Counted from the first letter of the stretch, positions 33,555-53,219 are shown. The stretch is DNA of 64,000 bases from Candidatus Omnitrophota bacterium (GCA_041653595.1 JBAZFB010000007.1:18527-82526); one strand, 5' to 3'. Made by a program: numbers and translations. Notes: generated by a model from the sequence alone, not told the origin.

Positions 33555-33557
33555 CTC

Positions 33558-36737
<3,180 letters not shown>

Positions 36738-36750
<13 letters not shown>

Positions 36751-37742: not shown

Positions 37743-37743
37743 A

Positions 37744-38661: not shown

Positions 38662-38686
38662 TATTGATAACCCCTTGTTCTTCCAA

Positions 38687-38715
38687 AGTTTACCACCAAC
38701 CTGCCCCGATGTCAA
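38687..38715 (-). promoter_or_regulatory. candidate promoter TTGACA-N17-TAAACT upstream of hldD
   Basis: Minus-strand sequence aaTTGACAtcggggcaggttggtggTAAACTttgg in the 94-bp gap; the -10 is a 4/6 match. Confidence 0.3.
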
Positions 38716-38755: not shown

Positions 38756-39826
38756 TCAGGTCTTAGTGAGGAGGCTTTCGGCGGCGGTCAAGACTTCCTC
38801 GACCGTGATGGCGTCGAGGCATTTGAAGCTGAGCTTGCAGTTGTGCGCGAGGCATTCCTCGCACCCTACATCCTTGTGGATGACGATGTCGTCCGGTCCG
38901 ACCGGGCCCCACCTCTGCGGCGAGAGGCCGGGATCGAGGCGGCCGAAGATCGAGACCACGGGCGTGCCTACGGCAACAGCGATATGGACCGGGCCGGAAT
39001 CGTTGGAGATAAGGAGCTTGCACTTCTTGAGCAGCGCGGCGACTTCGCCGAGCGAATGCTCTTCGGATAGGACCAGGGGCTTGTGGAGCATCCCTGTCTC
39101 GACCTCCTTTACGGTGTTGACATCCGACGGCCCTCCGATTATCACTATCTTAACGTTGTGCTTGTCGATAAGCTCGTCGGCCACGCGCCCGAACCTGTAT
39201 GCCGCCCAGCGTTTCGACCGGCAGCTCGCGCCCGGATGCACCGCGACGATGGTATCCTTTCCGCCGAGGTCGTTCAACGCCATAAACCTGTCGATAACCC
39301 TTTCATATTCCGGCTTCACCGGCATATACAGCGTCCTGTCTTTCGCGGCTATGCCGATCGCGCGCAGGACATCGAAATTATAATCTATCTCGTGCTTCTC
39401 GCCCAGGTGCTTCGTGTCCTTAAGCCGCTTCGTCAGTAAAAAACCCCACCTCTTGTCATAACCGGCGCGTTCCGGTATGCCCGCCAGGAAAGGTATGAGG
39501 TTAGACCTGAGGGTCGGGTGCAGGATTATCGCGAGGTTGAAACCTTTCCTCCTCAACTCAAGTATGAACTTGAGGCTGCCGAAGAACCCGTTATGCTTAT
39601 TATCCTTGTCGTAGAGTATGACCTCGTCCAGGTACGGGTTCCCGTCAACGATATCCTCCACATACGGCCGCGCCATGAACGCTATATGGGAGTTGGGATA
39701 CGCCTCCCTCACGGCCTTTATCGACGGAGTGGAAAGGAGCACGTCGCCTATCCTGTCCGTCCTGATGATGAGTATCCTGTATTTTCTTTTATTTGCGTTC
39801 ATCGAGTATCTTCTTCGCCGCGTCAA
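38756..39826 (-). CDS. glycosyltransferase family 9 (ADP-heptose:LPS heptosyltransferase-like), copy 1
   Basis: GT9 N-terminal signature ILIIRTDRIGDVLLSTP and C-terminal ISNDSGPVHIAVAVGTP. Confidence 0.85.
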   Translation of the reverse strand: MTRRRRYSMNANKRKYRILIIRTDRIGDVLLSTPSIKAVREAYPNSHIAFMARPYVEDIVDGNPYLDEVILYDKDNKHNGFFGSLKFILELRRKGFNLAIILHPTLRSNLIPFLAGIPERAGYDKRWGFLLTKRLKDTKHLGEKHEIDYNFDVLRAIGIAAKDRTLYMPVKPEYERVIDRFMALNDLGGKDTIVAVHPGASCRSKRWAAYRFGRVADELIDKHNVKIVIIGGPSDVNTVKEVETGMLHKPLVLSEEHSLGEVAALLKKCKLLISNDSGPVHIAVAVGTPVVSIFGRLDPGLSPQRWGPVGPDDIVIHKDVGCEECLAHNCKLSFKCLDAITVEEVLTAAESLLTKT

Positions 39827-40760
39827 AGACTTCGTCGGCGCTCACCGCCTTCATGCATTCGAGGTTATACCTGCACAATGCCGTCTCGCACGGCGAACAA
39901 TGTAGCTCCTTAAATACCGCGGTCCCGGCCCCTGCCCTCGGGCCGTACTTCACGGGATCTGTCGGCCCGAATATCGCGACCGCCGGCGTCCCGATCGAAC
40001 CGGCTATATGCAGCGGCGCGCTGTCGTTGGTCACCAGGAGAGAGGACCGTTTTATGATGCACACCAGCTCGCGCAGGTCCGTCATCCCGGCTACCGATAC
40101 CGCGTAATTCCTCATCTTTGCCAGTATCCTTTCGCAGATCTCTTTGTCGGAATCGTCGCCGACGAAAATTATCTTCAACTTGAAGGCGTCGATGAGCAGA
40201 TCGCAGGCCCCGGCGAACCCGTCTTCCCTCCATCTCTTTATATGGCTCTTCGCGCCCGGGCTCACGCATATATATTTATCGTCGCTGAGTATCCCTTTTG
40301 CGGTCAACAGCCTCGAAGCCCTTTCGGAGTCGTCCCTGCCTATCCATACGGGATACGGCCCGCCGGCGGCTGTGATACCGAATTCCCTGATCTTCGCCAG
40401 ATGCTCGTCTATCTTATGGCATACTTCCCCTGCCCGGCCTTTCACATGTTTATTGCAAAACCGGGCGCCCACGAAAAGGCCGAACAGGCTGCTGCGCAGG
40501 TCGATAAGAAGGTCGTACCTGTTGCGCCTGAGGCGGGCCAGAAGCTTTATCTTGGAAACCGGCGGCTCGGAGTTGCGGTAGACATACATCTTCCCTATGC
40601 GCGGATCGCCCTCGAATAACTCCGCGGCGCGGGGCCCTGCCACAACATCTATCGCCGCGTCCTTGAAATTTTCCCGCAGCGCGCCGATGACCGGGAACGT
40701 CAGGACGACGTCGCCGATATTGCTTAACGTCACGACGAGTATCTTCTTTATGTTTTCCAT
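39789..40760 (-). CDS. glycosyltransferase family 9 heptosyltransferase-like, copy 2
   Basis: ILVVTLSNIGDVVLTFP ... VTNDSAPLHIAGSIGTP. Start trimmed to MENIKK. Confidence 0.85.
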   Translation of the reverse strand: MENIKKILVVTLSNIGDVVLTFPVIGALRENFKDAAIDVVAGPRAAELFEGDPRIGKMYVYRNSEPPVSKIKLLARLRRNRYDLLIDLRSSLFGLFVGARFCNKHVKGRAGEVCHKIDEHLAKIREFGITAAGGPYPVWIGRDDSERASRLLTAKGILSDDKYICVSPGAKSHIKRWREDGFAGACDLLIDAFKLKIIFVGDDSDKEICERILAKMRNYAVSVAGMTDLRELVCIIKRSSLLVTNDSAPLHIAGSIGTPAVAIFGPTDPVKYGPRAGAGTAVFKELHCSPCETALCRYNLECMKAVSADEVFDAAKKILDERK

Positions 40761-41791
40761 TTGAGGAGCTTTTCCGCCTCGAGCATAACATCTTCCACGG
40801 TAACGGCCTTCATGCAAAGAGCTTCTTCGCACTTAAGGTCATAACAAGGTGTCTTGCATCCGGGCTTTCCCGAATCCTTCTGAATGACCGCATATATTCC
40901 CTCCCCGTACGGCCCGGTGATCTTGGGGTCGGTGGGGCCGAATATCGCTATCGTCCTGGCGCCCTGGCTCACCGCTATATGCATAGGGCCCGAATCATTG
41001 GAGATGACAAGGGAAGCGCGTTTCATTATCGCGGCCAGCTGCCTTATAGTAGTCTCGCCGGCGGCGATGACGGGCTTATGCTTCATCATGCCGGATATCT
41101 TATTAGACAACTCAACGTCCTTTTGCGCCCCGGTAATGATAATGGGAACCTTATATTTTTCGTTTAACCTGTCGCCCAGTCCGGAAAAATCCACGGCCGG
41201 CCAGCGCTTGGGGTCCCAGTTCCCGCCGGGGTTCAATATGATGAACCTGTCGCCCTCGCCTATGCCGTGCGACTGCAAGAACTCGCCGGCGAAGGCTTCG
41301 TCTTCCTTGCCGGTGAATAATTCCATGCTCTTCCCGTCGTCTTCACCCGTTATGACCTTTACGATATTAAGGAACTGCTCGACCTTATGGATATCCGGCG
41401 GCTGGGGCTTTATCTTCTTCGTAAGGAGAAAACCCCTTTTCGGGTTGTCTATGCCTACCCGCTCCCTGATCCCGGAGAGCGCGACCATGAGCGTCCGCGT
41501 AAGCGACCTGTGGAAGAGGAAGACGCAGTCGAAACGGCGCGACCTTAACTCCGAAATAAGCTTGAGCTTGCCGATCAGCCCTTTATTCCTGCCCTTTTCG
41601 TCGTATATTATCAGTTCGTTCAGGTGCGGGTTTAGCTCGAGGATCTCTTCGCAGCGGGGCACGACCATGCACGCTATGTGGGCCCCGGGAAAATGCTTCC
41701 TGAGCGCCCTGATGGCCGGCGTCGAGAAGAGGACGTCCCCTATCCAGTTCACATTGACTATCAGTATTCTGTCGATTTTTTCTTTTTCCAT
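40748..41791 (-). CDS. glycosyltransferase family 9 heptosyltransferase-like, copy 3
   Basis: ILIVNVNWIGDVLFSTP ... ISNDSGPMHIAVSQGAR. Confidence 0.85.
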   Translation of the reverse strand: MEKEKIDRILIVNVNWIGDVLFSTPAIRALRKHFPGAHIACMVVPRCEEILELNPHLNELIIYDEKGRNKGLIGKLKLISELRSRRFDCVFLFHRSLTRTLMVALSGIRERVGIDNPKRGFLLTKKIKPQPPDIHKVEQFLNIVKVITGEDDGKSMELFTGKEDEAFAGEFLQSHGIGEGDRFIILNPGGNWDPKRWPAVDFSGLGDRLNEKYKVPIIITGAQKDVELSNKISGMMKHKPVIAAGETTIRQLAAIMKRASLVISNDSGPMHIAVSQGARTIAIFGPTDPKITGPYGEGIYAVIQKDSGKPGCKTPCYDLKCEEALCMKAVTVEDVMLEAEKLLKWKT

Positions 41792-42570
41792 CTGTGCGCC
41801 TTAAACCACATGTAATATCCCGATGTCTTTAACCTGAAATCCAACGAGCTGAACGGGCCGGAAGCGATCTTTACGCGTTTCAACCGGTAGGCGTCCAAAG
41901 CTATAGAGTTGTCACGCGGCATGGTCACGAAACCCGCCTTGTATCCCGCGTCCCTGAGTATGTCCCTCGTATAATCGTTAAACCCGCCGTAAGGGAAACA
42001 AAAGGCGTAGACCGGTTTCCCTGTGATGGCCTCTATCGCCTTCTTGGATTCGACTACTTCCCTCCTGAACCCCTCTTTAGTGGTCCCTTCGATAAACGGA
42101 TGCGTGACCGAATGGCTCTCAATATCGATGCCCGCGTCAGACATCTCTTTCATCTGCGCGGCATTAACGAAATCCGGCTTCCCTATAGAACCGGAGATGA
42201 CGAAGATGGTAGCCGGGATCTTATACTCCTTGAATACAGGAAAAGCGTTCACGTAATTATCCAGGTAGCCGTCATCGAAGGTCACCGCAACGATATTGCG
42301 CGGCATATTTTTCCCGCTCCTTATCATATCGGCGAGCTGCGCGGACGAAACGATGTCATATTTCCTGTCCCTGAGGTATTTCATCTGGGCGCGGAACTCC
42401 TTTACCGGGACGCTCAACTTAAGTTTAGCGCCATGGTCGTCGACCGAGTGGTACATGAGTATGGGCGGGTAATAACACTTCTCGAGAAAATTGCGCCCGC
42501 CGAAATAGAGCGCCGCGGCCGCGGCCAAAACAAGGGCTATAATTATTTTTTTCGGATTACTTAGAGCCAT
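41761..42570 (-). CDS. polysaccharide deacetylase (CE4 / NodB homology domain), secreted or anchored
   Basis: N-terminal signal/anchor. NodB motifs TFDDG and HSVTHP. Confidence 0.8.
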   Translation of the reverse strand: MALSNPKKIIIALVLAAAAALYFGGRNFLEKCYYPPILMYHSVDDHGAKLKLSVPVKEFRAQMKYLRDRKYDIVSSAQLADMIRSGKNMPRNIVAVTFDDGYLDNYVNAFPVFKEYKIPATIFVISGSIGKPDFVNAAQMKEMSDAGIDIESHSVTHPFIEGTTKEGFRREVVESKKAIEAITGKPVYAFCFPYGGFNDYTRDILRDAGYKAGFVTMPRDNSIALDAYRLKRVKIASGPFSSLDFRLKTSGYYMWFKAHRWKKKKSTEY

Positions 42571-43657
42571 CTATCACCTCTCTGTATACTTTTTCCACCT
42601 GCCGGGCCATCTTATCCGCCGTAAAATGCGCCTTGGCGTATTTTTTCGCGGCGGCGCTTATCTTTACGGCGAATTCCCGGTCGATTAAAATTTTCTTGAT
42701 AGCCTCTTTGAGTTTCCGGCTGTCCAGCGGGTCGGCCAAAACCCCTATCTCCGCGTCTTTCTGCATCGCCCTGAAATCTCCCACATCGGATGAAACGACC
42801 GGGACGTCCATCAACATAGCCTCTACGATGGACAGGCCGAACCCTTCGCTTGTGCTGGGCCTTACGAACACATCCATCACGGAGAGGAGATCGTGGGTAT
42901 CCAGGGTGTTCCCGACAAAACGCACATTGTCCGCGATACCAAGCTCCGAGACCCTGGCCTTGATCTTATCCTCTATCCTTCCGCTTCCGATTATCAATAA
43001 TTGCGCGCCCGGGACGTCGTCGAGCAGCGCCTTGAACGCCTCGAGGAGGATCATATGGCCCTTCTCTTCCGAAAGCCTCGCTATTATACCGATAACCGGC
43101 CCCCCGTTCAATTTATATCTTTTCCTTATTTCCCGTTTTTCCTGCTCTTTATATACATGCTCAAACCTTGAGGTATCCAGCCCGTTGTATATCAACCGGA
43201 TCTTCTTCTCGTCCCTGTTGAAATCATTTTTCAGGTGGCCGACGACCGACATACTAATGGCTATCGTCATCTCTCCCCAGCACGGCAGGACCTTCCTGAA
43301 AAAATGAGGCTTGTAAAAACCGTGCCATGTCGCGACATAAGGGACCTTGGTCATACTGGAGAGCATGCACGCGGCGAACTGCGCGACCCTCGTCTGGGCA
43401 TGTATTATCTCTATCTTCTCCTCCTTCACCAATTCCCATAACCTGAATACGGTCGCGGTTATCTTCGGGCTGGCGATCGATTTCGTCCCTAACGGGACCT
43501 TCACCGCCTTTACTTCCGGTAAGAGTTGTTTCTCCAGTTCCCCTCCCGCCGAAGCCACGAAGACTGAATGTCCCATAAGTTGCAGGGCATTAGCCAGGGT
43601 AACGGTGTACCTCTCGATGCCTCCTACACGCAGGTTGCTTGTTAAAAGTAATATCCT
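42557..43657 (-). CDS. glycosyltransferase family 4 (GT-B, RfaG/group 1)
   Basis: MRILLLTSNLRVGGIERY N-terminus and C-terminal EGFGLSIVEAM motif. Start trimmed to MRILLL. Confidence 0.85.
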   Translation of the reverse strand, partial: RILLLTSNLRVGGIERYTVTLANALQLMGHSVFVASAGGELEKQLLPEVKAVKVPLGTKSIASPKITATVFRLWELVKEEKIEIIHAQTRVAQFAACMLSSMTKVPYVATWHGFYKPHFFRKVLPCWGEMTIAISMSVVGHLKNDFNRDEKKIRLIYNGLDTSRFEHVYKEQEKREIRKRYKLNGGPVIGIIARLSEEKGHMILLEAFKALLDDVPGAQLLIIGSGRIEDKIKARVSELGIADNVRFVGNTLDTHDLLSVMDVFVRPSTSEGFGLSIVEAMLMDVPVVSSDVGDFRAMQKDAEIGVLADPLDSRKLKEAIKKILIDREFAVKISAAAKKYAKAHFTADKMARQVEKVYREVIDGSK

Positions 43658-45759
43658 CATTTCGGCAACATCACCCCGTCGATCGCTTTTAAGACGTCTT
43701 CCACGGTGATCTCCCTCATGCATCTTATATCCGAACAGACCGGCTTATAGCACGGCGAACATTTCAGGTCCCTTATCACTACCGCGCAATTTTCCGAAGG
43801 CGGCAGGTGGCGATCCGGGTCCGTAGGGCCGAAGAGCGCGACAAATGGCACGGCCATAGCCGCGGCAATATGCATCGGCGCGCTGTCGCTTGTCACGAGG
43901 CATTTAAACCTTTTCATAAGCGCCGCGAGTTCGGGAAGAGATGTCTTCCCGACCAGGTTTATCGGCTTGGACCTCGCCAGTGATAATATCTCGTCGCTCG
44001 TGTTCGCATCGGTTTCCGACCTGCCGCCTATAAGGACAGCCCTTATCTCGCGCTCGCCTAACAGGTCGCAAAGCCTCGCGAAATTCTCGGAGGGCCATTT
44101 TTTTGTGGCCCAGCGCGGGCTCGCGGACGGATTTATTCCGACAAGCGTCTGGTTCTCTCCTACCCACTCCGCCTCAAGCATCTTTTTTATATTTTCCGTA
44201 TCCGAGGCCGAGGGCCAGAGCTCAAGTTTCTTCGACGCGCCCTCTATGCCCATCATCGACAGGACCCCGAACTGGTGGTCCACCGGCGGGAGCGGCCCTT
44301 TGGCGTCCCTTATGGTCCTGTTAAGCAGGAACCAGTATTTACCTTTCCTGTAGCCGTACCTGCGCGGGGCCGCGCTCAGGAAAGCGAACAGGTGGCTCTT
44401 GGAGCTATTCTGGAGATCGACCACTTCCTCGAACCCGTACCTCCTGATCTCGGCCGCCAATTCGAAGAACCTGAGCCATCCCTTATCCCTGCCTTCCCTG
44501 TCATATATTATCGTCTCGTCTATATAAGGGCATCCTTTAAGCGCCTGGCTCTCGACCCTGCCTATCAGCAGGGCTATATACGCCTTCGGATATTTCTGGC
44601 GGATCGCGCGGATCGAAGGCGTGGCGAGGACGCAGTCGCCGACAGCGCTTATTTTCATTATAAGTATCCTCTTTACCCCTAGCGCCTCATCGTATACCCT
44701 AAGCGTCTCGGTCACCAGCCTGTCAAGGTTGAACTTCTCCTCGACGTCTTTCCTGGCGCGCTGCGTGACCTCCCTGGCGAATTTCCGGTCCTTGAGCAGT
44801 CTCACGATCGCCTCTGCCATAGGCTGCGGGTCTTCCGGCGGGACGATAAGCCCGTTCTCGCCGTCCCTCATTATCTCCATAACGCCGCCTACGCCGGTCG
44901 CCACGACCGGCACGCCTGAGGCGAACGCCTCTATTATCACCATCCCGAACCCCTCCGGCACTACGCTCGCCATGACGAGGAGGTCGAGCCTCGCGAGTAT
45001 ATCCGGGATATCGCTCCTCGCGCCGAGGAATTCGACATACCTGGAAAGCCCGAGCCTGTTCACCAGGCTCTCGAGCTCCTGCTTATATCTCTCCTTCTCC
45101 GGCGGGGCATCTCCCACGATGACGACCTTGATGCGGGGGATGTACCTCACAACTTTAGATACCGCCCGTATGAAATATTTATGGCCTTTTATCGGCGAGA
45201 GCCTGCCTATTATCCCTATCGTATATTCATGTTTTACCGATTCGTCCGGCTCCCTGTATTTGAATTTTTCCACGTCCACGCCCCTGTAGACCAGCCTTAT
45301 CCTGCGGAACGGGACCTTGAAATTATCCATCATGTGCTTGGCTACCACCTGGCTCACCGCGATGACGAGCTTGCCCCATCCCATTACCTTGCTGAAACTT
45401 AAAAATTTCTTCGAGTAATGGGCGTGGCAGGTGGTGATGAACGCGACGCCGGCGCCCCGCGCGGCATAATAGCCTATTATGGCCGGGACCCTGCTCTCCG
45501 CGTTAAGGACATCCGCCTTCTCCTGCCTCAATATCCTTTTGACCGCGGGTATCATCCTGAGGACGGTAAGCGGGTTCTTGCTGTGGACGGGAAGGCTGTA
45601 ATGTTTTATCCCGTTCGCCTCAAGGTGCTTTACCATCTCCCCGCCGTTGGATATGACGGTTATATTATGGCCGAGCTTGACCATCCTAAGGCAGAAATTG
45701 AGCACCCCAATCTCAACTCCGCCCGAATTCAACCTCGGTACTATATGGATTATCTTCAT
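43657..45759 (-). CDS. bifunctional glycosyltransferase: N-terminal GT4 domain fused to a C-terminal GT9 heptosyltransferase-like domain
   Basis: Residues 1-370 are GT4-like (MKIIHIVPRLNSGGVE..., EGFGMVIIEAFASGVPVV). Residues ~375-700 are GT9-like (ILIMKISAVGDCVLATPSIRAI ..., TSDSAPMHIAAAMAVP). Confidence 0.8.
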   Translation of the reverse strand: MKIIHIVPRLNSGGVEIGVLNFCLRMVKLGHNITVISNGGEMVKHLEANGIKHYSLPVHSKNPLTVLRMIPAVKRILRQEKADVLNAESRVPAIIGYYAARGAGVAFITTCHAHYSKKFLSFSKVMGWGKLVIAVSQVVAKHMMDNFKVPFRRIRLVYRGVDVEKFKYREPDESVKHEYTIGIIGRLSPIKGHKYFIRAVSKVVRYIPRIKVVIVGDAPPEKERYKQELESLVNRLGLSRYVEFLGARSDIPDILARLDLLVMASVVPEGFGMVIIEAFASGVPVVATGVGGVMEIMRDGENGLIVPPEDPQPMAEAIVRLLKDRKFAREVTQRARKDVEEKFNLDRLVTETLRVYDEALGVKRILIMKISAVGDCVLATPSIRAIRQKYPKAYIALLIGRVESQALKGCPYIDETIIYDREGRDKGWLRFFELAAEIRRYGFEEVVDLQNSSKSHLFAFLSAAPRRYGYRKGKYWFLLNRTIRDAKGPLPPVDHQFGVLSMMGIEGASKKLELWPSASDTENIKKMLEAEWVGENQTLVGINPSASPRWATKKWPSENFARLCDLLGEREIRAVLIGGRSETDANTSDEILSLARSKPINLVGKTSLPELAALMKRFKCLVTSDSAPMHIAAAMAVPFVALFGPTDPDRHLPPSENCAVVIRDLKCSPCYKPVCSDIRCMREITVEDVLKAIDGVMLPK

Positions 45760-47708
45760 AGTATCTTATCGAGCCCCGCCCGGATAGCCTCCATGTCCCC
45801 GCTTAATATATCGGCCTGCTTGTGGTTTATCAGGTGTTTGATATCGCCGCTTATATCCGCCGGGGCCGACACCGCGAGCAGCCCTTCTTTTTCCAGGTTG
45901 CGTACGGAAACTTCCTGTTTCGTCCCCGAAAATTTATTTATTTTTTGCGGCATGAATACCGCTACGGGTTTCCCGGAACTCACGGCTTCGGTCACCATCG
46001 CGACCGATTCGCCGGAAACGACGATCACATCCGACAGCGCGAGGATCCCTTCCACCGCCCCTTCGAAATTATTATCGTTCGCGATCAGGAGGAGTTTGAC
46101 CCTTTCCGATTTGCCGTAACGTTCCTTCAGCGCGAATTCGACCGCCCTCGGAGTCCTCCTCGAGGTCGTGATGAGCACGTCGGCGTCGATATCTCCGGCT
46201 GCCTCCATGACCCGGTCTACCACCTCTACCGCCAATTCTTTCTCGAACGCGTAAGACTTGGAATCTCCGCCCAGCAGCACGCCGATGATCCTGCCCCTGC
46301 TCACGACGGCATGTCTTTTCAGTTTCTCGCCGTATTCGCGCAGGGAATTTTTATCAAGGTCGGTCACCGCCCCCTTGGTGAAGACGGCATTACCGGAATC
46401 CCCGGCTTTGTCGTGGACCGGGATAACGCTGAGGCTAAAATCCTTTATGTTGTACATATTCGGCTTCATGATGACCACGGCCTTTGAGCCGAGCTCTCTC
46501 TTGAAAGCGAGGTTAACGCCGGCGAGCGATGCGCCGCATGATACCACATAATCGGCATAGGCGGCCCTCAGGTTGGCATAAACTTCTTCCGGGAAACAGA
46601 ACGAGAGGCTGTGAAGGCCCATGCCAAGGAGTGAACCTATGTCGAAGACCGTCCTCGCGAGACCGCTCCTGAATTTGACCTCGAGCGTCTCTATCACCGT
46701 GTCTTCCGCGGAGAAACCTCTTTCCACGCGGGCTTTCCTGATCGTATTGGCGAGGGCGCGGGATTGCTTGAAATGGCCAGCCCTCCCGTCGCTTAACACG
46801 AGGACATACCTGGCCGGGGTTGATTTCCAGCGCTTGTGCAGCCATAGCCATTGCCCGGGGTATTTCTCAATATAGCCCGCGAGCTTATCCGTGAACCTCT
46901 GGAGTATCTCGTGTATATCCTTCTTTATATCTTCCGACTGGAGGACAGAGATATCGTCCTCGATCATGACCGTATGATACGGGCCTTTCTGCCGTATTAT
47001 GACGACCGGGAATATCAAGGCTCCGGTCCTCAGGGAAAAATTAGCCGCTCCCTTAGGCGTGGATGCGGGCCGCCCGAGAAAATCCACGAATTCCCCGCGT
47101 TTTCCGCCGTCCTGGTCGGACAATATCCCGACCGTTTCCTTCCTCCTCAAGGCGTCAGTTATCTCTTCTATCGCGTCGTCCTTGAATATGACGTTCGCGC
47201 CTTTCGAACCGCGCATCTTATTCAGGTAATCGTTGAGCCTCTTAAGTTTTTGGAAACGGACAAGGACGTTCATCTTGAATCCAAAGGTAGAACCAGTCAA
47301 GGAACACAGTTCCCAGTTGCCGAAATGGGCGGTGAGGAAGATGACGCCCCTGTCTTCCTCCTTTGCCGCGCTCCTTACCTTATCGAGGCCTTCCACTCTG
47401 ATGTATTTGCTAACGTAATCCTCATCGAACTGCGGGAACTTCAGGAGTTCTATATAGGACTGCGCTAGGTTCTGGTATATTTCTTTTATTATGCGGTTCG
47501 CCTGCGAAGGCGTATACCTGCCCCTGAACGCGGCGCGCAGGTTGGCGTAAGCTACGGTCTTGCGCCTGCCCATCGTATAATATATGAGGCTCCCGAACCG
47601 CCTTGCTATCCAGAGTGAAAGCTTAAGCGGAAGCAGGCGGAATACGAACGCCTCAAGCCTTACGAATAAATATAGGATCCAGTCCGCCAAAAAAGTGCTC
47701 CTCGTCAT
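45756..47708 (-). CDS. two-domain protein: N-terminal LpxL/HtrB-family lipid A acyltransferase fused to a C-terminal ELM1-family (Mito_fiss_Elm1, GT-B-like) domain
   Basis: N-terminal half carries the acyltransferase H-box AHFGNWEL and YPGQWLWLHKRWK. C-terminal half carries the ELM1-family hallmarks LVLSDGRAGH and TTSRRTP. 650 aa. Confidence 0.7.
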   Translation of the reverse strand: MTRSTFLADWILYLFVRLEAFVFRLLPLKLSLWIARRFGSLIYYTMGRRKTVAYANLRAAFRGRYTPSQANRIIKEIYQNLAQSYIELLKFPQFDEDYVSKYIRVEGLDKVRSAAKEEDRGVIFLTAHFGNWELCSLTGSTFGFKMNVLVRFQKLKRLNDYLNKMRGSKGANVIFKDDAIEEITDALRRKETVGILSDQDGGKRGEFVDFLGRPASTPKGAANFSLRTGALIFPVVIIRQKGPYHTVMIEDDISVLQSEDIKKDIHEILQRFTDKLAGYIEKYPGQWLWLHKRWKSTPARYVLVLSDGRAGHFKQSRALANTIRKARVERGFSAEDTVIETLEVKFRSGLARTVFDIGSLLGMGLHSLSFCFPEEVYANLRAAYADYVVSCGASLAGVNLAFKRELGSKAVVIMKPNMYNIKDFSLSVIPVHDKAGDSGNAVFTKGAVTDLDKNSLREYGEKLKRHAVVSRGRIIGVLLGGDSKSYAFEKELAVEVVDRVMEAAGDIDADVLITTSRRTPRAVEFALKERYGKSERVKLLLIANDNNFEGAVEGILALSDVIVVSGESVAMVTEAVSSGKPVAVFMPQKINKFSGTKQEVSVRNLEKEGLLAVSAPADISGDIKHLINHKQADILSGDMEAIRAGLDKIL

Positions 47709-48738
47709 TTATTTTTATTTCCACCGCCAGCGCCAGCATCTTCACGCCCAAACCGGGATCCGCCGCGCCGGCCTGTTTTATGCGCGGCAGGTCTTTCTCG
47801 GTCGTTACAATCGTATCTATTCCCTTGCCCTTGCACTCAGCGGCGATCCTGCCGATCTCGCGCGAAGAATAGATATGGTGGTCCATGAAAAAATACGCCG
47901 CGGCGATATTCGCCCCGAGCGAGACCACGCTATCCTCAAAAGAAGCCGGGTCGCCTATCGCGCATAAGAGCGCGACCGACTTGTTATTCAGGCAATCGAT
48001 CGGGGCATCGGCGCCCCCCATCGCGTCATAAAGGCGCCGCGGCTCGTATGAGGCGTTAAATATCGCCGCATCGGGATTGACATCCCTTATTCTGTCTTTC
48101 AATATCTCCGCCCTGCCCTGGCTCGCCTCTTCCGGGAGGACCTTGGTCACTACGATGATATGGGCCCTCTTAAGCGCCGAGACCGGCTCCCTGAGTATGC
48201 CCCTCGGGATCAATTTCCCGTTGCCGAAAGGGTTGTCCGAACTGACCGCGACCACATCGACGTCCCTCTTGAGCCTCAGGTGCTGGAAACCGTCGTCAAG
48301 CAATATAATATCCGGCGCGTATTTCTCCTCGGCCTCTTTTGCGGACGCTATCCTGTCGCGCCCCACGAGGACCGGGACCCCGTCAAGCGAGCTCTTGAAG
48401 ACCTCGGCTTCGTCGGCAATGCCCGTATCCCTGTCCTTCATGTAACCTCGCGTCAGTATCACGACCTTCTTCCCTTTTTCCCTGAATCTACGCGCGATCT
48501 CCGCGGTCAAAGGGGTCTTGCCTGTCCCTCCCAGCGTTATATTCCCGACGCTTATTACCCTGCATTTGGGACGATAAGACCTGACGATCCCCCTCTTCAA
48601 AAGAAATCTCGTGACCGCTAAAACAGAGACGTAGTCAAATGACAGCCCATAAAGGAGCAGCTTGAGGGCCGCGGCTGCGGGGCCTTGCGCCTCATCGGTC
48701 ATCAACGAATAAAAATACCGCCTGATCTTCTCGCTCAT
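47653..48738 (-). CDS. lpxK: tetraacyldisaccharide 4'-kinase
   Basis: SVGNITLGGTGKTP P-loop, 361 aa. Confidence 0.9.
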   Translation of the reverse strand: MSEKIRRYFYSLMTDEAQGPAAAALKLLLYGLSFDYVSVLAVTRFLLKRGIVRSYRPKCRVISVGNITLGGTGKTPLTAEIARRFREKGKKVVILTRGYMKDRDTGIADEAEVFKSSLDGVPVLVGRDRIASAKEAEEKYAPDIILLDDGFQHLRLKRDVDVVAVSSDNPFGNGKLIPRGILREPVSALKRAHIIVVTKVLPEEASQGRAEILKDRIRDVNPDAAIFNASYEPRRLYDAMGGADAPIDCLNNKSVALLCAIGDPASFEDSVVSLGANIAAAYFFMDHHIYSSREIGRIAAECKGKGIDTIVTTEKDLPRIKQAGAADPGLGVKMLALAVEIKINDEEHFFGGLDPIFIRKA

Positions 48739-50009
48739 ATTCTTCCAAGAAACGGTTTGATAAGATAGAAATCTTTTTTAGCGGCGCCGGCCTTAGACTC
48801 CAGCGTCCGCCTCGCGTTCTCGCCCATCTTGCGCCGCTCGGCATCGTTCTCGAGCAGGACGCGCAGCGAGGCGACTAGCTCGGCTTCGTCCCCGACCTTC
48901 ACTGCCCCTCTCGCCGAGATGAGGTCGTTCGTTATCTCCTCAAAATTATGCGTATACGGGCCGAATAGCACTACCTTCGAATGGTACGCGGCCTCGAGGG
49001 GGTTCTGCCCGCCTTTATTTATCAGGCTCCCTCCGATGAAGACGATATCGGCGGCGGCGTAGAGATGGGAGAGCCTGCCCATCACGTCCAATATCAGCAC
49101 CTCTTTCTCCCCAAGCGCCCCCGTCTCCGGTCCTGAAACGAGCCGCGGGGTCAATCCTGATCCCCTTACAAGGCCGGCCACGCTGCCGGTCCTGTCCGTA
49201 TGCCTCGGCGCGATGAGCAGCCTCAACTCGGGAAATTCCTCAGAGAGTTCTTTATAGCAGCGCAATATCTTCTCTTCCTCTCCGGGGTTGGTCGAACCCG
49301 CGACCAATAATTTCTCTCCGGCCCCCAGCCCCAGCTTTTTCCTTAAGATATCCGGGGGATCGCCGGGGCTCTTCATCAGGGCCGCGTCATATTTCAGGTT
49401 CCCCGTAGCCTTCACTCTCTCTTTCGGCGCCCCGAGGGAGATGATCTTTTCGGCGTCGGCCCCGGACTGCATAAGGAAAAGGTCTATCTTTTGCAGGACA
49501 TCTTTAAGCAGCGGCCTTACCATGCCGTAATTCCTGAACGAGCCGGGCGAGACCCTGCCGTTGAATATCGCTATTTTCGCGCCGTTTTTTTTCAAAGAAG
49601 CTATCAGGTTCGGCCATATCTCGGTCTCGGCGATGAGGGCGATCTCCGGCCTTACCAGCTTTACGACCCTGTCCGTTATGCCGCTCAGGTCGAGAGGCAG
49701 GTATATTATAGCGACGGCATCTTTGAATTTCTCGCGGGCTATCTTATTGCCGGTAGCGGTGACTGTCGAGACGATTATCTTGCCGCCCGGGAGGTTCCTT
49801 CTCAGTTCCTCATAAAGCGGGACGCTCGCCATCACTTCGCCCACCGAGACGGCATGCAGCCAGACCGCCCCGGAGTCTTTTATCTTTGAAAGTGTTTCGC
49901 TGTCGAAGATCCCGAGCCGCTGGCTGCTGAAACTCCGCCATTTGCCTGAGAGCAAAAAATACGGGAGATAAAAAACGGAGAATATTACAAAAAACAGGTC
50001 GTAGAGCAT
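48735..50009 (-). CDS. waaA: 3-deoxy-D-manno-octulosonic acid transferase (Kdo transferase)
   Basis: N-terminal anchor, WLHAVSVGE motif, GT30 fold, 424 aa. Overlaps the lpxK start (co-transcribed lpxK-waaA). Confidence 0.9.
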   Translation of the reverse strand: MLYDLFFVIFSVFYLPYFLLSGKWRSFSSQRLGIFDSETLSKIKDSGAVWLHAVSVGEVMASVPLYEELRRNLPGGKIIVSTVTATGNKIAREKFKDAVAIIYLPLDLSGITDRVVKLVRPEIALIAETEIWPNLIASLKKNGAKIAIFNGRVSPGSFRNYGMVRPLLKDVLQKIDLFLMQSGADAEKIISLGAPKERVKATGNLKYDAALMKSPGDPPDILRKKLGLGAGEKLLVAGSTNPGEEEKILRCYKELSEEFPELRLLIAPRHTDRTGSVAGLVRGSGLTPRLVSGPETGALGEKEVLILDVMGRLSHLYAAADIVFIGGSLINKGGQNPLEAAYHSKVVLFGPYTHNFEEITNDLISARGAVKVGDEAELVASLRVLLENDAERRKMGENARRTLESKAGAAKKDFYLIKPFLGRI

Positions 50010-50022
50010 CTCTTTTTGGTTT

Positions 50023-50925
50023 TTAAGCCCGCGGGTGCGCTTTTGTATACGCGGACTTGAGCCTTTCGGTAGTTATATGGGTATATATCTGGGTCGTCGA
50101 GAGGTTGGCGTGGCCGAGAAGCTCCTGCACGCTCCTCAGGTCGGCGCCGTGGTCGAGCATATGCGTCGCGAATGAATGGCGCAGGGTGTGCGGCGATATC
50201 TTCTGCTGGATGCTCGCCTTGGTTATATATTTATTTATTATCCTTCTTATCGACCTGTCGGTCAGCCTGCCGCCGTTCTTGTTGAAGAAGAGCGCTTTAT
50301 CCCGCACTTCCATGGAAGTGCGGGACTTAGTCTCCTTCGCGACCGGCCTGCGCGCCTTCAGGTAATCCCTTATAGCCTGGAGCGCCCTCTCGCCTATCGG
50401 CACTATCCTCTCTTTTTTGCCCTTGCCGAACACTTTTATGATCCCGCCTATCTGGTCGATGTAGTCCATATTCAGGCCGACGAGCTCGCTCACCCTTATC
50501 CCTGTCGAATAGAGAGTCTCGAGTATCGCCCTGTCCCTGAGCCCCACCTCGCCCTCCCTGTCGGGCGATTCCAGGAGCAGGACTATCTCTTTTTCGTCCA
50601 GGAACTTCGGGAGGTGTTTGTCCCGCTTTGGCGTCGAAAGCGACGACGCGGGGTTGTTCTTTATTATCCCTTCCCTGAAGAGGAACTTGAAAAAAGACCT
50701 TATCGAGGCGATCTTGCGGGCGATCGAGACCTTCGACAGGTTCTGTTCCTTGACATGCGCCAGATACCTGCGCAGCGAGATGTAATCGACCTTCTCTATC
50801 GGCTCTTCCTTGAGGAATTCATTCAATGATTTGAGATCGACCGAATAGTTTATTAGCGTATGTTTCGAGGCGTTCCTCTCGATCTCAAGATATCTTATGA
50901 ATTTCTCGACGTATCTATCTATCAA
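50023..50925 (-). CDS. xerC: tyrosine site-specific recombinase XerC/XerD family
   Basis: N-terminal SAM-like domain and C-terminal catalytic HTLRHSFATH...LLGH...Y, 300 aa. Confidence 0.9.
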   Translation of the reverse strand: MIDRYVEKFIRYLEIERNASKHTLINYSVDLKSLNEFLKEEPIEKVDYISLRRYLAHVKEQNLSKVSIARKIASIRSFFKFLFREGIIKNNPASSLSTPKRDKHLPKFLDEKEIVLLLESPDREGEVGLRDRAILETLYSTGIRVSELVGLNMDYIDQIGGIIKVFGKGKKERIVPIGERALQAIRDYLKARRPVAKETKSRTSMEVRDKALFFNKNGGRLTDRSIRRIINKYITKASIQQKISPHTLRHSFATHMLDHGADLRSVQELLGHANLSTTQIYTHITTERLKSAYTKAHPRA

Positions 50926-53219
50926 GGCTGCGGCTCCTGCTTGGGCTTATCTTCGGGCTTGCCCTCGCCTGTCGGCGAGGACTGCGCATCGCCTTCTGTT
51001 TGCTTGGGCTTGCCCTCGTCTGCGGACGAGGACTGCGCATCGCCTTCTGTTTGCTTGGGCTTGTTCTCCACGTGCCGGCAGGTGGGGAACCTGGAACAAC
51101 CGTAGAACGCGCCCCGGCGCGACCTGCGTTCTACGAGCTCGCCGTCGCACCCCGGCTCCGGGCACTTTATGCCGGTCGTGACCAAAGGTTTGGCGTTCTT
51201 GCATTCGGGAAATCCTGAACAGCTCTTGAACCTGCCGCGCCTGCCCCACTTTATTATCATCTTCCGTCCGCACTTCTCGCAGACCTCATCGAGCTCCTCG
51301 ACATCTTTCTTGACGTCTTTCATCTCGACCTGGGCCTTTGAGAGCCACTGCGAAAAAGGCCCGTAGAAATCCCTGAGGACCTGCGCCCACTCGACTTTGC
51401 CTTCTTCTATCTCATCGAGCTCTTCTTCCATCTTGGCGGTGAATTCCTCGTCTATGATGACCGGGAAGCTTTGGGTGAGAAGGTCATTGACGACCGTGCC
51501 CAATTCCGTAGGCCATAGCGCTGAGCCTTCACGCCTGACGTAATTGCGGGCGACGACCGTCTCGATGGTGGGCGCGTAAGTGGAAGGGCGGCCGATGCCG
51601 TCTTCCTCGAGCGCCTTTACCAGCGAGGCGTCGGTAAATCTTGGCGGCGGTTTCGTGAAATGCTGGGTCGGGTCGAGTTTTATAAGGTCGACCGTATCGC
51701 CTATCGCGAGTTTCGGTATATATGCCTTCTTCTTGTCCTTTTCTTCCTCTTCATCGTCATACGCGGCCTTAAAGCCGGGGAATATTACAGTCGAGCCCGA
51801 AGCCCTGAACAGGCACTTTCTTGCCTCTATATCTATGGATACGACAGACATGACCGCAGGCCTCATCTGGCTGGCGATGAATTTCGCCCATATCAATTTG
51901 TATAATTTATACTGGTCGGGCGTGAGATATTGCTTTATCGCGTCCGGCTCCCTGGCGGCCGAGGACGGGCGGATCGCCTCGTGGGCTTCCTGCGCGGCTT
52001 TTTTGGACTTATATACATTCGCTTCGGGAGGAAGATAATCTTTCCCGAATTTGTCTTTTATGTAGAACCTTGCCTCCTCTATCGCGGAGAAGGCCACTTT
52101 TACCGAGTCGGTCCTCATGTAAGTGATGAGACCGACAGTGCCCTCGGTCCCGATATCGAGGCCTTCGTAGAGCTGCTGGGCTATCTTCATCGTCTTCCCG
52201 GCCCTGTAATGCAGTTTATTGAAGGATTCCTGCTGCATCTTCGAGGTAGTGAAAGGGGCCTGCGGGTTCATCCTCTTCTCGGTTTCCTTTATATCCTTTA
52301 CCGTATATTTCGCGCCTGAGAGCTCCGCAAGTATCTTATCCGAAGACGCTTTATCTTTAACCTCGGCCTTCGCGTCGTTGATCTTATCCAGCTGCGCGAA
52401 AAAGGATTTCTTATCTTTTTTCTTCTTGAGTTCCGCTTCGAGTTCCCAATATTCAACCGCGACGAACGCCTGTATCTCGCGCTCGCGGTCGACGATGAGT
52501 TTTACCGCGACCGACTGGACCCTTCCCGCGCTCAATCCGCGCGTTATCTTTTTCCAGAGGAGCGGGCTTAAAGAGTAGCCGACTATCCTGTCGAGGACGC
52601 GGCGGGCCTGCTGGGCATTTACCAGCTTGATATCTATCTCGGCGGGATTATCGAAAGCTTCGAGTATCGCCTTCTTCGTTATCTCGTGGAATACGACCCT
52701 CTTGACCTTTTTGTTCTTCCCGAGATACCCGGCCAGGTGCCAGCCTATAGCTTCGCCTTCGCGGTCAGGGTCGGTCGCGATATAAATGGTGTCTTTGTCC
52801 TTCGCTTCGGCCTTCAACTCGCTGAGCAATTTTTTCTTTTTAGCGATCACTTTATAGGTAGGCGTGAAATTGTTCTCTATGTCAATTCCCATCTTTCGCA
52901 TGGGCAGGTCGATGACGTGGCCCATGGATGAGCGGACGGTGTAACCTTTACCGAGGAACTTTTCTATCGTTTTGGCTTTTGCCGGCGACTCGACTATGAC
53001 CAGGGCGCCGCCCTTGCCGCCGCCTACAGGCAGGATTATCTCGACCTTGTCGCCTTCTTTAAGTTTCACGGAATCATATTTCGACCTGTCGAGTATATTG
53101 AGGTTCAATTCGACGGCCGCGTATTTCACGTCGGCCTTAAGGTCCGAGATGAGCCCGGCGACCGTAATGCCGTCATCGGCCTGGATATCTTTTCCGTTCA
53201 CGCATATCTTTATCATCAA
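50922..53219 (-). CDS. topA: DNA topoisomerase I with an in-frame N-terminal ThiS/MoaD-like ubiquitin-fold domain (68 aa ending in GGG) and a C-terminal Lys/Pro-rich tandem repeat
   Basis: Residues 1-68 (MMIKICVNGKDIQADDGITVAGLISDLKADVKYAAVELNLNILDRSKYDSVKLKEGDKVEIILPVGGG) have ThiS length and the terminal Gly-Gly. They run without a stop into the TopA Toprim start ALVIVESPAKAKTIEKFLG. Two Zn-ribbon motifs. C-terminal 17-aa repeats GKPKQTEGDAQSS... Confidence 0.9.
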   Translation of the reverse strand: MMIKICVNGKDIQADDGITVAGLISDLKADVKYAAVELNLNILDRSKYDSVKLKEGDKVEIILPVGGGKGGALVIVESPAKAKTIEKFLGKGYTVRSSMGHVIDLPMRKMGIDIENNFTPTYKVIAKKKKLLSELKAEAKDKDTIYIATDPDREGEAIGWHLAGYLGKNKKVKRVVFHEITKKAILEAFDNPAEIDIKLVNAQQARRVLDRIVGYSLSPLLWKKITRGLSAGRVQSVAVKLIVDREREIQAFVAVEYWELEAELKKKKDKKSFFAQLDKINDAKAEVKDKASSDKILAELSGAKYTVKDIKETEKRMNPQAPFTTSKMQQESFNKLHYRAGKTMKIAQQLYEGLDIGTEGTVGLITYMRTDSVKVAFSAIEEARFYIKDKFGKDYLPPEANVYKSKKAAQEAHEAIRPSSAAREPDAIKQYLTPDQYKLYKLIWAKFIASQMRPAVMSVVSIDIEARKCLFRASGSTVIFPGFKAAYDDEEEEKDKKKAYIPKLAIGDTVDLIKLDPTQHFTKPPPRFTDASLVKALEEDGIGRPSTYAPTIETVVARNYVRREGSALWPTELGTVVNDLLTQSFPVIIDEEFTAKMEEELDEIEEGKVEWAQVLRDFYGPFSQWLSKAQVEMKDVKKDVEELDEVCEKCGRKMIIKWGRRGRFKSCSGFPECKNAKPLVTTGIKCPEPGCDGELVERRSRRGAFYGCSRFPTCRHVENKPKQTEGDAQSSSADEGKPKQTEGDAQSSPTGEGKPEDKPKQEPQP
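50940..51069 (-). repeat. 51-bp tandem direct repeat (2 full copies plus partials) encoding the 17-aa C-terminal repeat of TopA
   Basis: Near-identical units seen directly: cttgggcttgccctcg(c/t)ctg(t/c)gg(c/a)gaggactgcgcatcgccttctgtttg. Confidence 0.7.

Follow-up and report, generated by a model that had tools for sequence, protein, structure and literature searches.

What does an ELM1 domain do when it is fused to a lipid A acyltransferase? The question is raised by a gene at 45756-47708, on the minus strand of a 64,000-nucleotide stretch of DNA from a Candidatus Omnitrophota bacterium (GCA_041653595.1, JBAZFB010000007.1:18527-82526). We will call this stretch the window. The original prediction for this gene was that an LpxL-family acyltransferase is covalently fused to an ELM1-family domain, and that the substrate of the ELM1 domain is lipid A or the Kdo core, with the domain serving as either a GT-B-like transferase or a substrate-binding module. 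We find that the protein joins two already known types of enzyme, rather than being a novel kind of system.

The fusion protein and its gene cluster

The predicted fusion is present: the gene is a single open reading frame of 650 amino acids, and its sole stop codon is the terminal one. (A TTG at codon 7 is a possible alternative start; this would give 644 amino acids, which is the length of the closest homolog.) In a Pfam search, residues 7-295 matched PF03279 (Lip_A_acyltrans, the LpxL family; E = 4.8e-50, 170.9 bits versus a cut-off of 22.3) and residues 310-610 matched PF06258 (Mito_fiss_Elm1; E = 1.6e-43, 149.4 bits versus a cut-off of 27). A missing match to PF06258 had been proposed as grounds for rejecting the idea, and the match is there. 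An AF2 model of the full-length protein has two confident domains (pLDDT 89, pTM 0.84). The three motifs that had been reported, HFGNWE, LVLSDGRAGH, and TSRRTP, are all found, at residues 128-133, 303-312, and 515-520.

The N-terminal module (residues 1-298; 46815-47708) is identified as an LpxL-type lipid A secondary acyltransferase by PF03279 and by Foldseek. It has a moderately hydrophobic N-terminal helix, as judged by hydropathy, and its C-terminal end is the conserved QWLWLHKRWKSTP. The HFGNWE motif (47310-47327) aligns with the H-x4-E catalytic dyad (H128 and E133), and H128-FGNW-E133 does not vary among 33 aligned homologs. LpxL and LpxM (HtrB and MsbB) are Kdo-dependent secondary acyltransferases of lipid A. 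The module shares with them a full-length match to PF03279, the H-x4-E dyad, and the hydrophobic N-terminal helix, and the best Foldseek matches for the N-terminal half of the model were the LpxM structures 5KNK and 5KN7 (the latter from Acinetobacter baumannii; E = 9e-15 and 7e-14, target TM 0.69). PatA, a PIM acyltransferase, was a strong match as well. Unlike LpxL and LpxM, the fused protein is extended by a glycosyltransferase, and it scores below the cut-offs of all 17 NCBIfam equivalog models for LpxL, LpxM, or LpxP (the best was NF006270, with 166 bits versus 248), so these models assign neither its acyl chain specificity nor its position (2' or 3'). As had been predicted, the window encodes a second LpxL paralog (23869-24801, minus strand; PF03279 E = 1e-56). 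This is a stand-alone protein of 310 amino acids with the motif AHLGNWEL. It is 34% identical to the fused module and is encoded upstream of an lptC/lptA-like gene and lptB.

The C-terminal module (residues 299-650; 45759-46814) is identified by PF06258, BLASTP, and AF2. Its N-terminal Rossmann half begins with DGRAGH (D307 to H312; 46773-46790); other key motifs are H432-D433 (46410-46415) and SRRT (S516-R517-R518-T519; 46152-46163). An AF2 model of this domain alone (pLDDT 86.9) has a GT-B fold, and the Foldseek matches of the ELM1 models (pLDDT 87-89) were GT-B enzymes (E = 4e-8 to 1e-6). WaaA was absent from the top 50 structural matches of the domain model. The modeled fold, with its two Rossmann halves, is confident, and we assign this half to the GT-B glycosyltransferases, in the ELM1/GtrOC1 family. 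NCBI names these proteins "ELM1/GtrOC1 family putative glycosyltransferase."

The fusion gene lies between waaA-lpxK and a gene encoding a GT4::GT9 fusion, in an 18-kb cluster of lipid A, Kdo, and heptose genes. Both of the neighbors named in the original prediction are confirmed: lpxK, encoding tetraacyldisaccharide 4'-kinase (47653-48738; PF02606 E = 2.2e-72; TIGR00682 153 bits versus a cut-off of 92), and waaA, encoding the GT30 Kdo transferase (48735-50009; PF04413 E = 7.4e-59; NF004388 E = 2.1e-98, which is below the equivalog cut-off). The fusion gene had been described as immediately upstream of them, but all three are on the minus strand, so it is transcriptionally downstream of both. 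The 3' end of lpxK overlaps the start of the fusion gene. The stop codon of the fusion gene, in turn, overlaps the ATG of the GT4::GT9 gene (ctATGA). This gene (43657-45759, minus strand) encodes 700 amino acids, its GT9 half scores above the heptosyltransferase II cut-off, and no other downstream partner of ELM1 is as well conserved.

The remaining genes of the cluster are also on the minus strand. They encode another GT4 glycosyltransferase (42557-43723), a polysaccharide deacetylase (41761-42570) that is homologous to Pda1 (A1S_2901) of A. baumannii (28% over 215 amino acids, E = 4e-26), and three heptosyltransferase-like GT9 proteins (40748-41791, 39789-40832, and 38756-39826; together spanning 38756-41791). 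A run of genes for the supply of sugar donors (32598-38715) comprises hldD (37744-38715), heptose-7-phosphate kinase (36738-37742), kdsB (36004-36750), pyrG (34385-36007), kdsA (33558-34388), and kdsD (32598-33554). Thus kdsB, kdsA, kdsD, and pyrG are part of one gene string with the fusion gene.

Similarity to KdoT

According to the original prediction, no function had been assigned to bacterial ELM1 proteins. This is outdated, as A1S_2903 (GtrOC1) of A. baumannii has been assigned as KdoT (PMC10936431, 2024; PMC12856342, 2025). KdoT is the first characterized bacterial member of the ELM1 family: it is a CMP-Kdo:Kdo2-lipid IVA transferase that adds a third Kdo (KdoIII), and it prefers Kdo2-lipid IVA by about two-fold over the hexa-acylated form (PMC12856342). 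KdoT is membrane-associated though it has no transmembrane helices, and it is catalytically sufficient in vitro; in vivo it depends on GnaT (PMC12856342). R180 of the SRRT motif is needed for activity, while single alanine substitutions at D8, H13, H109, or D110 had no visible effect (PMC12856342). A distant homolog from Rickettsia gave partial complementation, and the characterized members (KdoT, its Acinetobacter orthologs, and the Rickettsia homolog) all restore KdoIII-dependent core synthesis (PMC12856342).

In the A. baumannii OC locus (L003), the kdoT gene (8998-9888) directly follows ilvE, and D8, H13, H109, D110, R179, and R180 of its product agree with the published numbering (PMC12856342). 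By BLASTP, the ELM1 half of the fusion protein is 25% identical to KdoT over 284 amino acids (E = 2e-18). D8 corresponds to D307, H13 to H312, H109-D110 to H432-D433, and R179-R180 to R517-R518; the SRRT motif aligns with S177-R179/R180-T of KdoT, and TTSRRTP is identical. All of the residues that were highlighted by the KdoT study (PMC12856342) are therefore kept. SRRT is invariant in both of the alignments of ELM1 relatives that we examined, and it is a hallmark of the whole family, rather than being specific to KdoT.

The likeness to KdoT extends to the GT-B fold and to the setting, as kdoT shares its LPS core cluster with genes for GT4 enzymes and the homologous deacetylase. But KdoT is a stand-alone protein of 296 amino acids with no membrane anchor, and the Omnitrophota-type domain, which is the C-terminal half of a larger protein, has an insertion of about 30 amino acids in its N-terminal Rossmann half. 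The Omnitrophota-type domains form their own clade, apart from KdoT and from a Methylophaga protein that we describe below. They are about 25-28% identical to KdoT, and they score somewhat higher against KdoT (71-79 bits) than against an ELM1 protein from Roseomonas (about 58 bits), in a comparison in which KdoT was the only ELM1 sequence from A. baumannii. GtrOC14, GtrOC19, and GtrOC22 are further ELM1 paralogs in A. baumannii, and they presumably form different linkages, so membership in the family does not fix CMP-Kdo as the donor.

The acceptor position is likely to differ from that of KdoT. A. baumannii has no heptose and carries KdoIII on O5 of KdoI, whereas the cluster in the window has genes for heptose synthesis and four GT9 domains. 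O5 of KdoI is the position that is usually occupied by heptose. Given the four GT9 domains and the genes for ADP-heptose synthesis, the acceptor position must differ from that in A. baumannii if heptose holds O5.

Pfam took the name of PF06258 from plant ELM1, a mitochondrial fission factor, which has only this family name in common with the Omnitrophota protein. In plants, ELM1 is described not as an enzyme but as a recruitment factor, which brings a dynamin-related protein to mitochondria. The bacterial context shows no relation to organelle fission, and the Pfam name is misleading for the bacterial members.

Conservation and related fusions

We examined loci from 80 species representatives of Omnitrophota (from GTDB). 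LpxL::ELM1 was present in 72 of the 80, and the H-x4-E dyad and SRRT were kept in all 71 complete copies. More broadly, the uninterrupted frame is found in over 120 protein clusters, down to 39% identity, including proteins from a closed chromosome (CP070837.1) and from single-cell genomes. The junction between the modules is rigid, with no indels or length variation in the homologs that we compared. A stop between the two halves had been named as the finding that would undo the fusion; instead, the frame is continuous and conserved. The fusion is a genuine gene of an Omnitrophota lipopolysaccharide cluster, and it is conserved in the phylum as far as we sampled it.

In 7 species, LpxK::ELM1 replaces LpxL::ELM1, and the P-loops are intact. 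These proteins (such as P0128, P0155, and L056 on CP070837.1) have an ELM1 domain from the same clade (37-42% identity) with SRRT kept, and their genes occupy the same position between waaA and the GT4::GT9 gene, but their N-terminal partner is the 4'-kinase instead of the acyltransferase. In a neighbor-joining tree (with no bootstrap), the LpxK::ELM1 proteins form one clade nested within the LpxL::ELM1 radiation, which is consistent with a secondary loss of the LpxL module. Since these 7 species have no LpxL module in cis, a physical coupling of the two reactions, acylation and glycosylation, is not required. There are also stand-alone relatives encoded next to GT4::GT9. D307, H432-D433, E574, and SRRT are invariant across the LpxL-fused, LpxK-fused, and stand-alone forms, from 98% to about 25% identity. 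The invariance of the motifs shared with KdoT (D307, H432-D433, and S516-R-R-T519) among the aligned members of all of these architectures argues against a mere substrate-binding module.

Other fusions join similar enzymes. Some Omnitrophota species have a WaaA::LpxK fusion. Methylophaga encodes an independently derived LpxL::ELM1 protein; its ELM1 half shares 35% identity with KdoT, but only 26% with the one in the window. Many uncultured Gammaproteobacteria encode LpxL::WaaA fusions of about 730 amino acids (for instance P0293, P0311, and P0381). These have the same order of domains, with an N-terminal LpxL followed by a C-terminal GT-B transferase for the Kdo region of lipid A, but their glycosyltransferase is the canonical GT30 WaaA instead of ELM1. 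They carry no annotation as fusions, and a literature search found no paper on LpxL::WaaA fusion proteins.

Proposed function and alternatives

The prediction that ELM1 works on lipid A or the Kdo core, as a GT-B-like transferase, is well supported by the homology to KdoT, by the GT-B model, and by the repeated fusion of ELM1 to lipid A enzymes and its synteny with their genes. We propose that the fusion protein is probably tethered to the membrane and bifunctional, adding to Kdo2-lipid IVA both an acyl chain and a sugar, the latter probably Kdo. It would act in the late steps of lipopolysaccharide assembly, on the cytoplasmic side and in association with the membrane. WaaA and LpxK, which are encoded directly upstream and appear to be translationally coupled, would make the Kdo2-lipid IVA intermediate. 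The LpxL module, with its H128-x4-E133 dyad, would transfer an acyl chain to this Kdo-bearing, tetra-acylated precursor of lipid A. The ELM1 module would add one more sugar to this intermediate, in its Kdo region; the donor, an acidic nucleotide sugar that is most likely CMP-Kdo, is most probably positioned by the arginines of SRRT. The GT4::GT9 enzyme would then extend the product. The N-terminal helix of LpxL may tether a glycosyltransferase that otherwise has no anchor, and the fusion would put both active sites on one substrate.

The donor might instead be another sugar, such as a hexuronic acid, a hexose, a heptose, or another ulosonic acid, which ELM1 would transfer to the inner core or lipid A within the same architecture and membrane context, with the SRRT arginines binding some other anionic group. 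The several ELM1 paralogs per OC locus, the identity of just 25% to KdoT, the separate clade, and an O5 of KdoI that is likely taken by heptose all fit this alternative, and the LpxK fusions also fit chemistry near the lipid A disaccharide itself. We nevertheless consider it rather unlikely: KdoIII-dependent core synthesis is restored by every characterized member, the motif residues are all conserved, the genes for CMP-Kdo supply are in the cluster, and the analogous LpxL::WaaA fusions join LpxL to a Kdo transferase. It is very unlikely that ELM1 is catalytically inactive and serves as a scaffold that holds Kdo2-lipid IVA for LpxL or recruits GT4::GT9. KdoT is sufficient for catalysis in vitro, the invariance of SRRT, D307, H432-D433, and E574 is the usual pattern for an active site and not for a scaffold, and the stand-alone relatives adjoin GT4::GT9. 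A scaffold would accord with the recruiting role of plant ELM1, with the alanine mutants of KdoT that had no visible effect (the family has no proven classical catalytic base), and with the dependence of KdoT on GnaT.

More improbable still is that two genes were joined by an assembly error or a frameshift, or that the LpxL-like half acts on another lipid. The source sequence is of the metagenome-assembled type, but an artifact is refuted by the conservation of the indel-free, uninterrupted architecture in independent clusters, in most of the sampled species, and on the closed chromosome. As for another lipid, PF03279 also covers PIM and lysophospholipid acyltransferases, PatA is a strong structural match, and no LpxL equivalog model reaches its cut-off; on the other hand, LpxM is the best structural match, and the gene is flanked by lpxK/waaA on one side and by the core glycosyltransferase genes on the other, in the company of kds and heptose genes.

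Beyond the bifunctional enzyme that we propose, a broader idea is speculative, and we consider it doubtful: ELM1/KdoT-type proteins might form a widespread second class of transferases that add Kdo or other ulosonic acids close to lipid A, and they would normally work in a physical assembly line for lipid A, in which glycosylation is obligatorily coupled to late acylation. In Omnitrophota, fusions would hard-wire the line, by WaaA::LpxK in some species and by LpxK::ELM1 or LpxL::ELM1 in others, with GT4::GT9 coming next. One possibility is that the product of ELM1 is the sole substrate of the fused LpxL, or the reverse. If this were true, the need of stand-alone KdoT for a partner in vivo would be explained, and the late steps of lipid A synthesis would follow a non-canonical order across a whole phylum.

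An LpxL::ELM1 fusion that is conserved across Omnitrophota

The gene at 45756-47708 (- strand) encodes a 650-residue protein, and its only stop codon is at the end. This single uninterrupted reading frame matches both PF03279 (lipid A biosynthesis acyltransferase; residues 7-295, E = 4.8e-50) and PF06258 (Mito_fiss_Elm1; residues 310-610, E = 1.6e-43), and both matches far exceed Pfam's gathering thresholds. The original prediction of an LpxL-family acyltransferase fused to an ELM1 domain is thus confirmed, and the motifs that it named are all present: HFGNWE (residues 128-133), LVLSDGRAGH (303-312), and TSRRTP (515-520). We will call this protein LpxL::ELM1, where "::" indicates domains that are fused in one protein.

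The nearest database protein, encoded in a Candidatus Omnitrophica MAG, is 98% identical. Both Pfam domains are present in over 120 clusters (at 90% identity) of homologs, down to 39% identity, with lengths of about 645 residues; those with a named source are from Omnitrophota. Across 33 aligned members (A1), the residues that never vary include H128 and E133 of the LpxL half and D307, G308, G311, H312, Q315, P430, H432, D433, T514, S516, R517, R518, T519, and E574 of the ELM1 half. The junction between the halves (QWLWLHKRWKSTPxR-VLVLxDG) has no insertions or deletions. We also scanned one genome per GTDB species and confirmed at least 490 candidate stretches as relatives. The best 80 of these loci are all from Omnitrophota (some were automatically labelled as Planctomycetia). 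Omnitrophota and the phylum of the Planctomycetia both belong to the PVC group. Using local BLAST, we found that 72 of the 80 loci encode LpxL::ELM1, seven encode a fusion of LpxK to ELM1, and one is a fragment at a contig end. All 71 complete LpxL::ELM1 proteins in this set retain both H-x4-E and SRRT. Because the loci include a closed chromosome (CP070837.1) and single-cell genomes, we can exclude mis-assembly. More broadly, conservation in the clusters, at the junction, and across the 80 loci rules out an artefact or a frameshift.

When we compared the ELM1 half to 1.84 billion representative proteins, we found 2,577 clusters at E ≤ 1e-3, and the best 150 of these are mostly fusions of around 650 residues. 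Many of the distant homologs have a cysteine motif (WRCxGCMxCMxxC, with 4-6 cysteines) within an insertion in the N-terminal Rossmann half of ELM1 (A1). In the subclade that includes the protein from the window, this insertion is five residues shorter and has just 1-2 cysteines (residues 340-390, or roughly nucleotides 46539-46691). The insertion may bind a metal or form a loop that contacts the membrane.

A cluster for lipid A and the inner core

The fusion was predicted to lie immediately upstream of lpxK and waaA. It does adjoin them, but it is downstream: all three genes are on the - strand and are transcribed in the order waaA (48735-50009), lpxK (47653-48738), and then the fusion, whose start overlaps the end of lpxK. 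On the other side, the start codon of a glycosyltransferase fusion of about 700 residues (GT4::GT9; 43657-45759, - strand) overlaps the fusion's stop codon (ctATGA). The common gene order, with around 41-43% identity, is xerC, waaA, lpxK, LpxL::ELM1, GT4::GT9, GT4, a polysaccharide deacetylase, and two or three GT9 genes. On this strand of the window, the three GT9 genes are followed by ADP-heptose 6-epimerase, heptose-7-phosphate kinase, kdsB, pyrG, kdsA, and kdsD. The epimerase, the heptose-7-phosphate kinase, kdsB, the GT9 at 38756-39826, and the GT9 half of GT4::GT9 score above curated NCBIfam cut-offs; for the last of these, the cut-off is for heptosyltransferase II. With this content, 32.6-50.0 kb is a supercluster for the late steps of lipid A synthesis and for the Kdo and heptose inner core.

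GT4::GT9 is the most constant neighbor of ELM1. It adjoins the LpxL-fused, LpxK-fused, and stand-alone forms (comparison loci L001, L002, L004, L005, and most of L006-L085). This recalls the functional pairing of an ELM1-family protein from Acinetobacter baumannii, KdoT, with the GT4 enzyme GnaT.

As predicted, the window also contains a second LpxL paralog, at 23869-24801 (PF03279, E = 1e-56). It is 34% identical to the fused LpxL module, and downstream of it lie an lptC/lptA-like gene and then lptB. The lptC/lptA-like gene (23090-23872, - strand) encodes 260 residues, with LptC at residues 9-145 and LptA/LptD_N at residues 168-249, and it may be an LptC-LptA fusion. Elsewhere in the window, the first ~70 residues of topA (50922-53219, - strand; MMIKICVNGKDIQADDG...) resemble a small domain of the ThiS/MoaD type, and the protein ends in a duplicated "KPKQTEGDAQSS" repeat. 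Since the TopA proteins of relatives have about 670 residues, versus 765 here, the annotated start of topA may be too far upstream.

Similarity to KdoT and a proposed bifunctional enzyme

The statement that bacterial ELM1-family proteins have no assigned function is outdated. In A. baumannii, deletion of the "ELM1-like" gene A1S_2903 truncates the core to Kdo2-lipid A (PMC10936431, 2024). The protein was then purified and renamed KdoT (PMC12856342, J Biol Chem, Dec 2025). KdoT cannot act on lipid IVA, its activity requires R180 of the conserved SRRT motif, and it is membrane-associated though it has no transmembrane helices. A homolog from Rickettsia complements in part. KdoT, which is known from Acinetobacter and Rickettsia, was described as a departure from the model in which WaaA adds all of the Kdo (PMC12856342).

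For comparison, we took the KdoT sequence from an A. baumannii chromosome that is filed as a plasmid (L003, 8998-9888). In its locus, this is the first gene past ilvE, with a glycosyltransferase and Pda1 next, and D8, H13, H109, D110, R179, and R180 of the recovered protein agree with the published numbering (PMC12856342). Four "plasmid" records of A. baumannii (NZ_CP104448.1, NZ_CP077849.1, NZ_CP064203.1, and CP040041.1) are 3.6-4.1 Mb, with one of 561 kb. They contain loci that belong on the chromosome (ilvE and then the OC locus, for example) and are evidently mis-filed chromosomes or fragments of them.

KdoT aligns to residues 299-650 of the fusion with E = 2e-18 (BLASTP; 25% identity over 284 residues). 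D8 and H13 of KdoT align with D307 and H312, PEHD aligns with PVHD (430-433), and TTSRRTP is identical in both. These matched positions are invariant in an alignment of LpxL-fused, LpxK-fused, and stand-alone forms together with KdoT (A2). KdoT lacks the insertion in which many distant homologs of the fusion have the cysteine motif. The polysaccharide deacetylase in the window is homologous to Pda1 (A1S_2901; E = 4e-26); without 2901 or 2900, A. baumannii does not have the GlcN branch.

The AlphaFold2 model of the full-length fusion is confident (pLDDT 89, pTM 0.84); the high pTM points just indirectly to a fixed orientation of the two halves. Using Foldseek against the PDB, the N-terminal half matches LpxM (5KNK/5KN7, E ~ 1e-14) and PatA, and the C-terminal half matches GT-B enzymes. 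A model of the ELM1 domain by itself (pLDDT 86.9) has generic GT-B matches only (UDP-sugar 2-epimerases, GT1 glycosyltransferases, and TarL, with TM scores of 0.45-0.57), and WaaA is not among its top 50 structural matches. Searching PDB sequences with a profile of ELM1, we did not find a solved structure from the family (best E = 0.15).

We propose that the fusion is probably a bifunctional enzyme that combines an acyltransferase with a KdoT-like Kdo transferase. The N-terminal helix of LpxL would hold the protein at the membrane; the ELM1 half does not have a moderately hydrophobic N-terminal segment, and the LpxL module and LpxK each have one. The LpxL half would add a secondary acyl chain via H128 and E133, and the GT-B half would add one further sugar, which is most probably Kdo, with CMP-Kdo as the donor and R517 and R518 positioning it. 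Core extension by GT4::GT9 and other glycosyltransferases would follow. In this scheme, the order of acylation and sugar addition is inferred, as are the donor and the acceptor hydroxyl. Because the cluster is equipped for heptose, the sugar probably does not go to O5 of KdoI, which is the position in Acinetobacter.

The donor is uncertain, since A. baumannii has further ELM1 paralogs (GtrOC14, GtrOC19, and GtrOC22) besides GtrOC1, which is KdoT. An enzyme of the same design whose ELM1 half transfers a different sugar is a real but distinctly less likely explanation; the residues shared with KdoT include the SRRT arginine that KdoT needs for activity. We see only a small chance that the ELM1 half is a non-catalytic module, given those same invariant residues, or that the fusion, which lies beside waaA and lpxK, has a role outside of lipid A.

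Related fusions and their implications

In seven of the 80 Omnitrophota species, LpxL::ELM1 is replaced by LpxK::ELM1, with 700-740 residues. We saw such fusions in L005 (3438-5543), L024, L033, L056, L059, L061, L066, and L077. Two long matches to ELM1, P0128 and P0155, are also LpxK::ELM1, and the gene for P0155 has the equivalent position, with waaA on one side and GT4::GT9 on the other. All of the LpxK::ELM1 proteins have an intact kinase P-loop and an intact SRRT. In a neighbor-joining tree without bootstraps, they form one clade that is nested within the LpxL::ELM1 radiation. The synteny and this tree are consistent with the secondary loss of the LpxL module. We looked for a remnant of the C-terminal motif of LpxL at the LpxK::ELM1 junction and found none. 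In two other Omnitrophota genomes, one of them from a single cell, apparent WaaA::LpxK fusions lie directly upstream of LpxL::ELM1 (L047, 527-3085, 853 residues; L049, 2739-5153, 805 residues), with WaaA at about residues 1-455 and LpxK at about 465-836.

A stand-alone ELM1 protein, P0227, is encoded directly upstream of GT4::GT9 in a genome labelled Deltaproteobacteria bacterium (L004, GCA_050258655.1). In the neighbor-joining tree, P0227 falls within the ELM1 clade of Omnitrophota, which suggests either that the gene was transferred horizontally or that the MAG was mislabelled or mis-binned. For other phyla, we sampled the linkage of stand-alone ELM1 to lpx genes via a few plasmid records.

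The gammaproteobacterium Methylophaga pinxianii also encodes LpxL::ELM1, on plasmid pWTT2411 (L086, 4906-6930; WP_226069883.1). This protein has 674 residues and a low-complexity linker of about 70 residues, and GT4, a glycosyltransferase, GT9, and O-antigen ligase are encoded downstream. In its ELM1 half, identity is 35% to KdoT and only 26% to the ELM1 half from the window, so this fusion most likely arose independently. In gammaproteobacterial MAGs, proteins related to the Methylophaga protein through LpxL are very often fusions of LpxL (N-terminal) to WaaA (C-terminal), with about 730 residues. There are occasional LpxL::GT9, tandem LpxL::LpxL, LpxL::GT2, and LpxL::EptA-like variants. (This set is P0280-P0391; we checked P0293, P0311, P0381, P0281, P0275, and P0276.) Joining a late acyltransferase to a Kdo-region transferase, as in the LpxL::ELM1 fusions of Omnitrophota and Methylophaga and in LpxL::WaaA, is thus a recurrent design.

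We did not find any paper that describes LpxL::ELM1, LpxK::ELM1, or LpxL::WaaA fusions. NCBI's name for the fusion ("ELM1/GtrOC1 family putative glycosyltransferase") and JGI's (lauroyltransferase) each cover one of the two domains, and Pfam's "mitochondrial fission ELM1" is misleading for the bacterial proteins. The fusion unites two known enzyme families and does not represent a novel type of system; once KdoT is known, it would not surprise a specialist. Its value is as support for the recent discovery of KdoT that is independent of Acinetobacter genetics: the various fusions are Rosetta-stone evidence that ELM1-type transferases work beside the enzymes of the Raetz pathway, at the stage of Kdo2-lipid IVA. 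The fusions also suggest a possible reason for KdoT's dependence on a partner in vivo, namely membrane tethering or substrate hand-over, and they offer a ready-made bifunctional construct for probing how late acylation and core glycosylation are coupled. Finally, these results extend the ELM1 family to an entire uncultivated phylum, the Omnitrophota, and they make a first concrete prediction about the inner core of its LPS.
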